A DNA stretch of 64,000 nt from an uncultured Gammaproteobacteria bacterium (lineage in GTDB: Bacteria > Patescibacteriota > Patescibacteriia > UBA9934 > GWF2-40-263), in the NCBI GenBank assembly GCA_964402425.1, contig CAYOCD010000003.1, forward strand, positions 4,608-68,607, given 5' to 3'. Shown in pieces: positions 22,730 to 22,868 of the stretch. The notes below the pieces were generated by a model, which ran no database searches, was not told where the DNA came from, and saw only the letters and a list, made by a program, of their open reading frames with translations. The translations under genes and the position numbers were made by a program. The stretch's first letter is position 1. Each line of letters opens with the position of its first letter.

Positions 22730-22741
22730 ATCATCGTCTGC

Positions 22742-22814
22742 GCTCTACCAAAGCCGACGATTCAGTCGGCTCCCCGACACACACAGTGTCGTCGGGGCTG
22801 AGCTACATCGGCAT
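22742..22814 (-). repeat. Partial duplicate of the tRNA-Thr 5' half (first ~25 nt) interrupted in the D-loop by a 46-nt insertion of two GC-rich hairpins
   Basis: Minus-strand reading: AUGCCGAUGUAGCUCAG-[ccccgacgacactgtgtgtgtcgggg][agccgactgaatcgtcggct]-UUGGUAGAGC, then GCAGACGATGAT, then the intact tRNA. Direct repeats sit at 22716-22732 / 22798-22814 and 22705-22714 / 22742-22751. Confidence 0.5.
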
Positions 22815-22868
22815 GACTGGCCGCATCATAGCAAAGTGTTTCTAAATTGAAAACCCCACACAGACAGA

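Follow-up and report, generated by a model that had tools for sequence, protein, structure and literature searches.

The 83-nt block that lies directly upstream of tRNA-Thr in the window (by which we mean the whole stretch of analyzed DNA, 64 kb long) is probably an ORF-less relic of a family of insertions that invades tRNA D-loops in Patescibacteria; the block would have lost its nuclease gene and would now be co-transcribed with the tRNA as its 5' leader. Sequence comparisons establish that the block is a member of this family, that the family is linked to a nuclease gene and is specific to the D-loop, and that the corresponding site is empty in a relative. Homing, the direction of events and the loss of function are what we infer from these observations. 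Our judgment is evenly divided on the more general proposal, namely that the two-hairpin module together with an ~86-aa UPF0213-type GIY-YIG protein makes up an undescribed class of mobile elements, one that would invade the D-loops of tRNAs with the GCTCAGTTGGTAGAGC arm, regenerate the tRNA, ride on the tRNA promoter and persist mostly in gene-less form. The window locus would be a quiet relic, and its value is in exposing the module family.

A split half-tRNA upstream of tRNA-Thr

An intact tRNA-Thr(CGU) with encoded CCA was found by ARAGORN at 22654..22729 on the minus strand (65.7 bits with the Rfam tRNA model); it is the only gene in the window that bears the target D-arm. Upstream of it, GCCGATGTAGCTCAG (22812-22798, minus strand) is completely identical to tRNA-Thr positions 1-15, and the exact repeat reaches 17 nt (ATGCCGATGTAGCTCAG) if the two bases 5' of GCCGATGTAGCTCAG are counted. 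A 46-nt insert (22797-22752) follows, composed of hairpin 1, CCCCGACGACACTGTGTGTGTCGGGG (22797-22772), a single A, hairpin 2, GCCGACTGAATCGTCGGC (22770-22753, read as GCCGAC TGAATC GTCGGC), and a single T. The base of hairpin 1, CCCCGAC/GTCGGGG, is invariant; the hairpin also has a bulged G and a distal stem that varies, here ACAC/GTGT. The right flank of the module (22742..22752, minus strand) consists of the extra T and TTGGTAGAGC (22751-22742), the latter duplicating tRNA positions 16-25; the similarity is broken at position 26 (G for A). Twelve bases, the spacer GCAGACGATGAT (22730..22741, minus strand), separate the pseudo-half from the genuine start of tRNA-Thr, and neither an ORF nor a promoter-like site was found in them. 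Between TTGGTA and the first base of the tRNA lie 16 nt, and the stump and the tRNA are identical in 9 of their first 9 nucleotides. The first-pass annotation had described, on the minus strand, an upstream repeat of the first ~25 nt of tRNA-Thr, an insertion of two hairpins between the CAG and UUGG of the D-loop and a TATGAT element just upstream; all three were recovered at the positions given here.

The TATGAT -10 box (22830-22825, minus strand) ends 12 nt before the pseudo-half and is part of a promoter-like site (22825..22853) made of TTTTCA, 17 nt and a TG-extended TATGAT, the sole such site detected by the promoter scan upstream of tRNA-Thr on this strand. Since the scan placed no promoter-like site between the module and tRNA-Thr, the block is likely to be transcribed within the pre-tRNA; today it would form the first ~95 nt of the precursor, to be removed by RNase P. 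On the other side of the tRNA, an inverted repeat with a T-run (AAAACACCTCGT/ACGAGGTGTTTT, 22615..22644, minus strand) resembles a terminator and would end the tRNA transcription unit; the terminator/promoter scan did not call it on the minus strand.

A chance origin of the repeat is excluded, as an exact 17-mer is expected to be repeated within 100 nt about 4e-4 times per 64 kb (our own estimate) and a collinear exact 10-mer stands behind the 17-mer. An assembly artefact is excluded as well, because the half-tRNA and the hairpins recur in independent assemblies. Within the window both hairpins are single-copy and a second module is absent.

Elements of the integrase type (prophages or integrative elements) classically betray themselves by directly repeating part of a tRNA gene, and the block could be read as the attachment-site scar that one of them left on integration into, and excision from, the tRNA gene. 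Yet it is the 5' part of the tRNA that is duplicated, not the 3' part, and the repeats are only 12 nt apart; no integrase gene is found among the neighbors, which code for a sortase, a SpaA-like protein, FtsE/FtsX and a PPIase; and the gene linked to the module in other genomes codes for a GIY-YIG nuclease. Two scans of viral contigs were also without a related match: the split-D-loop pattern had no match, and the hairpin core had a single chance match, in a high-GC phage coding region without a tRNA, which gives no link to phages. We consider such a scar extremely unlikely. Of the suggestions in the first-pass annotation, that of a mobile-element scar comes closest, with respect to a dispersed D-loop family with a nuclease link and an empty site in a relative, but not with respect to integration and excision by an integrase.

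The position of the insert, exactly within the D-loop, and the richness of Patescibacteria in tRNA introns (PMC13011429) could point to a decayed intron-containing, split or permuted tRNA gene, an idea also raised at first. Against it, the similarity to the tRNA stops at position 26, with the insert cut out in silico no tRNA is called by ARAGORN, no Rfam intron family matches, and the 333 Patescibacteria tRNA introns surveyed are group I introns of 184-894 bp, none of them in a D-loop (PMC13011429). This origin therefore has next to no credit with us, and the related suggestion of a disrupted second tRNA copy is valid for a 25-nt stump and for nothing beyond it. In searches of Rfam (release 15) at both gathering and E-value thresholds no family was found for the module; tRNA alone reached the gathering score, and the best non-tRNA match on the module was rpfG, with 17.6 bits against a cut-off of 75.9.

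The tRNA-Thr locus in related genomes

An exact-match scan with the tRNA anticodon arm, in which each species was represented by one genome, yielded 95 Patescibacteria loci. Three of them, L019, L040 and L043 (Candidatus Uhrbacteria), have an identical tRNA-Thr preceded by the 5' 15 nt, hairpin 1, hairpin 2 and TTTGGTA; their hairpin 2 is longer (GCCGACATTCAACA..TGTTGAATCGTCGGC), and the one in the window is a shortened form of it. With the covariance model R1 these three loci, which are outside the model's seed, scored 54-69 bits, while the remaining 92 of the 95 tRNA-anchored loci showed nothing comparable; the window block (22742-22812) scored 86.1 bits, a value that has to be read with the window being in the seed.

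Synteny around the locus is kept: Mur ligase, PH-domain protein, septum protein, PPIase, in some genomes the SpaA-like protein and sortase, then tRNA-Thr, a plus-strand ORF, FtsE and FtsX. Ranked by identity of FtsX to that of the window, the relatives are L043 (92%, site filled), L075 (89%, site empty), L040 (86%, filled) and L019 (77%, filled). The promoter region GGGGTTTTCAATTT..GCTATGAT is shared by the window and all four of these relatives (alignment A2), so the promoter upstream of the half-tRNA is orthologous to the promoter of the relatives' tRNA. In the insert-free L075 the tRNA begins 15 nt past the -10 box, at the place equivalent to the start of the pseudo-half, which in the four filled loci, the window included, begins 9-12 nt past that box. 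One and the same site is, therefore, filled in four genomes and empty in the fifth. From position and alignment, the copies in the window, L019, L040 and L043 are orthologous. By the similarity ranking, the empty site in L075 would indicate either a precise loss of the insert or a ranking that differs from the tree.

Among the orthologous copies the two kinds of sequence in the block behave differently. The hairpins change in pairs: ACAC/GTGT of hairpin 1 in the window is ACAT/ATGT in L019 and CTG/CAG in L043, and hairpin 2 varies between ATTCAAC/GTTGAAT and AATCAAC/GTTGATT. The tRNA-like parts mutate (GAGC to GAAC or AAGC; T8 to C in L040). Pseudo-halves of the family show decay of their D-stem, with 76% of cells paired, and mismatches are present in L019, L040 and L043. 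In L040 mismatches occur in both hairpins as well as in the pseudo-half. The persistence of an ORF-less copy down to 77% FtsX identity, with hairpins kept by paired changes, hints at some constraint; given how long Uhrbacteria have kept it, with compensatory changes, a role in cis or gene conversion is conceivable.

One form such a role could take is a structured 5' leader of pre-tRNA-Thr adopted by the host for stability, RNase P processing or promoter clearance, and kept by selection. The block does sit between the only promoter-like site and the tRNA; folded alone, it adopts a three-way junction with the D-stem closing off the two hairpins (-40.1 kcal/mol, z = -2.4); and four species, in a lineage of very small genomes, have kept it, with compensatory changes. 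(An MFE fold of the leader together with the tRNA was also computed and was kept out of the inference.) On the other hand, an identical tRNA lacks the block in the close relative L075 and in L048 and L083, the tRNA-like parts decay, and the same module is found before nuclease genes and inside dead tRNA copies. The stems, moreover, are strictly Watson-Crick, with equally few G-U pairs on either strand, which fits a DNA palindrome better than a selected RNA. We regard adoption by the host as improbable, and the window block, taken as a relic, most likely has no function of its own.

The first-pass annotation had proposed to compare this locus in related genomes and to look for the hairpins elsewhere. 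The ORF-less arrangement is indeed present in relatives, and the hairpins are a dispersed repeat, yet their dispersal is specific to tRNA D-loops and linked with a nuclease gene.

The surroundings of the locus showed several further features. In the window, L040 and L043 the interval from the PPIase gene to tRNA-Thr is occupied by the sortase and SpaA-like (prealbumin-fold) genes (window 22869-23965, minus strand), which L075 and L019 lack at this place; the two genes thus constitute a variable insertion beside the tRNA locus. Between tRNA-Thr and ftsE, on the opposite strand, there is a 128-aa ORF (22198-22584, plus strand) with no Pfam match, whose position is conserved in relatives with protein identity of 67% in L043, 56% in L075 and 37-38% in L040 and L019. 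This ORF probably represents a real gene; an overlapping 155-aa ORF of the minus strand is less conserved. In L009 (about 4720-4830, minus strand) a different GC-rich conserved element of ~110 nt (..TTCTAGGAGTGAGTGAGCACGGCCGAGGCG..GAACGAACGACGACGAAGATGG..) is located directly upstream of tRNA-Thr(CGU). This type of element is also present in other Patescibacteria (L028, L032, L076, L085, L089 and L095), and in Rfam it matched no family at the gathering score.

The hairpin module and its linked nuclease gene

Metagenomes were scanned with the pattern GCTCAGCCCCGAC-N(25-55)-GTCGGCTTTGGTA, and 90 contigs with the module were found. Added to the window and the three Uhrbacteria loci, they brought the total to 97 instances, with 75 distinct hairpin sequences. 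The module, CCCCGAC..GTCGGGG-A-GCCGAC..GTCGGC-T, is always on the tRNA strand, with GCTCAG on one side and TTGGTA on the other, and the adjoining tRNAs all carry the GCTCAGTTGGTAGAGC arm. By type of the downstream tRNA the instances are distributed as Thr (UGU/CGU/GGU; 41), Val (13), Phe (9), Ile (4) and Lys (4). The outer hairpin bases were fixed by the search pattern and their invariance is partly built in; the junction GTCGGGG-A-GCCGAC, which is absent from the pattern, is conserved in nearly all copies. Among all fetched loci, only one degenerate copy of the module was observed outside the D-arm context. A generic REP/MITE-like palindrome was rejected for this reason, given also the single copy in the window. 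We also dropped the idea that hairpin 2 (GCCGA..TCGGC-U) mimics the acceptor minihelix of tRNA-Thr, since its base is invariant beside Val, Phe, Ile and Lys tRNAs.

In hairpin 1 the distal stem is hypervariable, yet its two arms stay perfectly complementary. One pair is AU in 11, CG in 9 and UA in 2 cases, and the next is CG in 9, GC in 8, AU in 4 and UA in 1; the covariation score of this stem was matched in none of 500 shuffles. As a test of RNA versus DNA structure we counted G-U pairs, and found them to be rare and without strand asymmetry (15 versus 17). In several loci (L169, L118/L154, L175) nested copies of hairpin 1 or 2 were seen inside the hairpins' own loops, pointing to either self-insertion or expansion by a templated process. 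Strict pairing, equally few G-U pairs on both strands and the nesting would be easier to explain by a DNA palindrome or a templated process than by selection at the RNA level.

The duplication of the tRNA starts sharply at its +1 position, with flank identity of 0-3 nt in most copies, and ends at positions 21-28. In 54 of 71 copies the stump agrees with the downstream tRNA in at least 8 of the first 9 positions, and in the remainder it comes from a different tRNA; such mismatches are expected if the stump and the restored tRNA differ in origin.

We classified 82 non-redundant copies of the module. The window's type, an ORF-less module with an intact tRNA within 120 nt, is the most frequent one (50 of 82). 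In 19 copies the pseudo-half and module are followed by an ORF, mostly of 85-92 aa (range 85-95, with one of 148 aa), and then by an intact tRNA. In about 9 copies the module sits in the D-loop of a second tRNA copy with a complete 3' part, and 4 copies are at contig ends.

The spacers of the ORF-less copies cluster at 12-19 nt and do not contain random ORF remnants; the ORF-less form may, therefore, be a unit of its own and not a decay product. In L096, two ORF-less modules stand at two different tRNA genes with hairpins 1 nt apart, whereas between genomes hairpins differ widely; together with the clustering of the spacers this suggests that ORF-less units may be mobilized in trans. These observations, with the predominance of ORF-less over ORF-bearing copies (50 to 19) and the maintained pairing of the hairpins among the Uhrbacteria orthologs, agree with another reading of the window block as an active non-autonomous (MITE-like) element. 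The pseudo-half and hairpins would then be a cis substrate for a GIY-YIG nuclease encoded elsewhere in the genome, being copied into tRNA D-loops or homogenized between them. This reading, which differs from the dead-relic explanation only on the window copy being dead, we hold to be unlikely but not negligible: the window has a single module and no nuclease gene in its 64 kb, the four Uhrbacteria copies are orthologs that seem to have been inherited vertically, and L040 has accumulated mismatches in both hairpins and the pseudo-half.

Other interrupted tRNA sequences were noticed in the same contigs. The tRNA-Thr(GGU) behind an ORF-less module of L096 (about 7490-8000, plus strand) is interrupted after the anticodon (..CATTGGT|GAGTTAAATTGCCC..), probably by a group I intron, for which Rfam made no call at the gathering score. 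In L155 (1240-1290, plus strand), L149 (200-260, plus strand) and L173 (1050-1110, minus strand), hairpin-bearing tRNA pseudo-copies contain additional GC-rich hairpins inserted into the anticodon loop, D-loop or T-arm.

The ORF linked to the module codes for a GIY-YIG domain (Pfam PF01541, E-values from 1e-13 to 2e-16), and its closest structures are the stand-alone UPF0213 proteins 1zg2 (E 4e-9) and 1ywl (E 3e-4). Each of the catalytic-type residues Y, Y, R, H and E is conserved in at least 90% of 26 ORFs. Pfam detected no other domain in the 86-aa protein; with the GIY-YIG domain alone, the nuclease may recognize the hairpins (as a cruciform or single-stranded DNA) or RNA. The stop codon of the ORF falls at the next tRNA or within its first 10 nt, and is often formed by that tRNA's own U8-A9-G10. 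If the stump with the module is denoted by A, and the module with the tRNA body by B, then the further orders ORF-A-tRNA, tRNA-ORF-B, ORF-tRNA-B and A-ORF-tRNA-B were also seen.

The link between the gene and the module was tested in the reverse direction by a protein search for homologs of the ORF, six of which were traced to contigs, giving 7 loci. An intact tRNA follows the ORF in all 7 loci, at a distance of 10 nt or less in 5 of them. A split tRNA half with the module is located upstream in 5 of the 7; the other two (L190, L191) are variants, L190 having the module without tRNA flanks. In the tRNA-Pro(CGG) variant, L191 (1885-2300, plus strand), a partial tRNA-Pro copy is followed by a 76-aa GIY-YIG ORF and an intact tRNA-Pro; the partial copy extends from position 1 to about 57, and a single hairpin of different sequence, TCCCGAC GTCAC GTCGGGA, stands in place of its anticodon arm.

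Unrelated hairpins were found in two of the tRNA-anchored loci, L020 (2725-3150, plus strand) and L026 (5940-6570, minus strand), where an intact tRNA-Thr, a GIY-YIG ORF and a tRNA fragment split in the D-loop stand together; in L020 the hairpin sequences form a tandem pair, GCCCCGCC TGAGATA GGCGGGG. This architecture indicates that the design is broader than one pair of hairpins.

In locus L160 the outer 5' stump GCCGCCTTAGCTCAG (GCCGCCT) and the outer 3' body ..GGGCGGCTCA (..GGGCGGC) join as one tRNA-Thr(CGU), the D-loop of which is interrupted by the module, TTGGTAGAGC, the ORF, a different intact tRNA-Thr(CGU), GCTCAG and an identical module. The layout of L188 is likewise A-ORF-tRNA-B. 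Judging by its parts, this is what a D-loop insertion delivering a replacement tRNA would leave.

In the 64-kb window itself no GIY-YIG gene was detected by either tblastn or hmmsearch. The best hmmsearch match (E 0.095), in the plus-strand ORF at 22198-22584, was treated as noise.

Proposed route of insertion and comparison with known systems

A full-length element would consist of tRNA positions 1-15, the two-hairpin module, TTGGTA(GAGC) with the GIY-YIG gene, and an intact tRNA. It would enter the D-loop of a tRNA gene between positions 15 and 16, most likely when the nuclease triggers a break in the D-loop that is repaired from an occupied allele (homing), with the stump serving as the homology arm on one side and the restored or cargo tRNA on the other. 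By bringing or regenerating an intact tRNA on its 3' side the element would let the host keep its tRNA. The resident promoter would drive the stump, module, ORF and tRNA as a single transcript, from which RNase P would release the tRNA. Loss of the 3' remnant (B) and later of the ORF would produce the A-tRNA form, as in the window; the pseudo-half there would be the 5' stump of the ancestral tRNA-Thr gene with its promoter still attached, and the present tRNA-Thr the restored copy. Activity of this protein family on tRNA genes is a predicted role. The notion that the insertion protects itself by destroying its target fails, since the occupied loci all keep an intact D-arm beside the nuclease gene; if the enzyme cuts the D-arm sequence, the host copy would not be immune.

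The family accounts for odd 'half-tRNA' leaders that are ignored by tRNA finders and can be misread as pseudogenes, att sites or introns. It also ties a stand-alone GIY-YIG family to the tRNA D-loop and a conserved pair of hairpins. The streamlined CPR genomes appear to tolerate, and long retain, selfish insertions at essential, often single-copy tRNA genes, as the element apparently restores the gene it breaks. If the proposal is true, the UPF0213 protein family would gain its first biological context, and the tRNA genes of the smallest bacterial genomes would be a habitat for selfish DNA besides introns.

In the literature searched, the coverage of which was incomplete, we found neither a D-loop hairpin module nor a tRNA-linked UPF0213 nuclease described, and no paper on a function of UPF0213 proteins or their link to tRNA. 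The ORF resembles the UPF0213 / COG2827 proteins (PDB 1zg2, BH0048, and 1ywl, EF2693) in its single-domain architecture of ~90 aa, and the two are its relatives in sequence; both PDB entries are titled 'hypothetical UPF0213 protein'. E. coli YhbQ is another stand-alone GIY-YIG member of UPF0213 / COG2827.

Those integrative elements that insert into tRNA genes and restore them rely on tyrosine or serine integrases, have lengths of kilobases and copy the 3' part of the tRNA. The family described here is similar to them in its logic: an insert in a tRNA gene brings along the portion that it displaces, which reconstitutes a working tRNA and leaves a tRNA fragment behind at the opposite junction. 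It differs in size (a unit of ~0.1-0.45 kb), in the duplication of the 5' part and in having no integrase.

In the same bacterial group, GIY-YIG genes have been reported in non-intron insertion sequences of CPR rRNA genes, which their authors place outside homing (PMC11270868). The likeness is in GIY-YIG ORFs carried by non-intron insertions in genes of stable RNAs. The rRNA insertions, however, are sparse and without a conserved site, whereas the present family occupies one precise D-loop position in tRNA genes and has the hairpin module.

The closest precedent for the proposed mechanism is SegB, a free-standing GIY-YIG homing endonuclease in the tRNA gene cluster of phages T4/T6 (PMC2330249, PMC13096335). 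Its target includes a motif conserved among many tRNAs, and SegB spreads with neighboring tRNA genes (PMC2330249); after it has cut, segments that contain tRNAs are amplified in tandem in a recombination-dependent way (PMC13096335). In both systems a GIY-YIG nuclease gene adjoins tRNA genes, and SegB offers a precedent for partial tRNA duplications. SegB, on the other hand, is a larger phage protein recognizing a T-psi-C motif, while the protein of the present family is mostly of 85-92 aa, is of UPF0213 type and has no DNA-binding domain in Pfam. The family is chromosomal, found in Patescibacteria, uses a D-loop site, and includes the two-hairpin module and the tRNA 5' stump in its unit. Compared with a SegB-like element, the window copy is without the nuclease gene, which 19 of the 82 family copies elsewhere carry.
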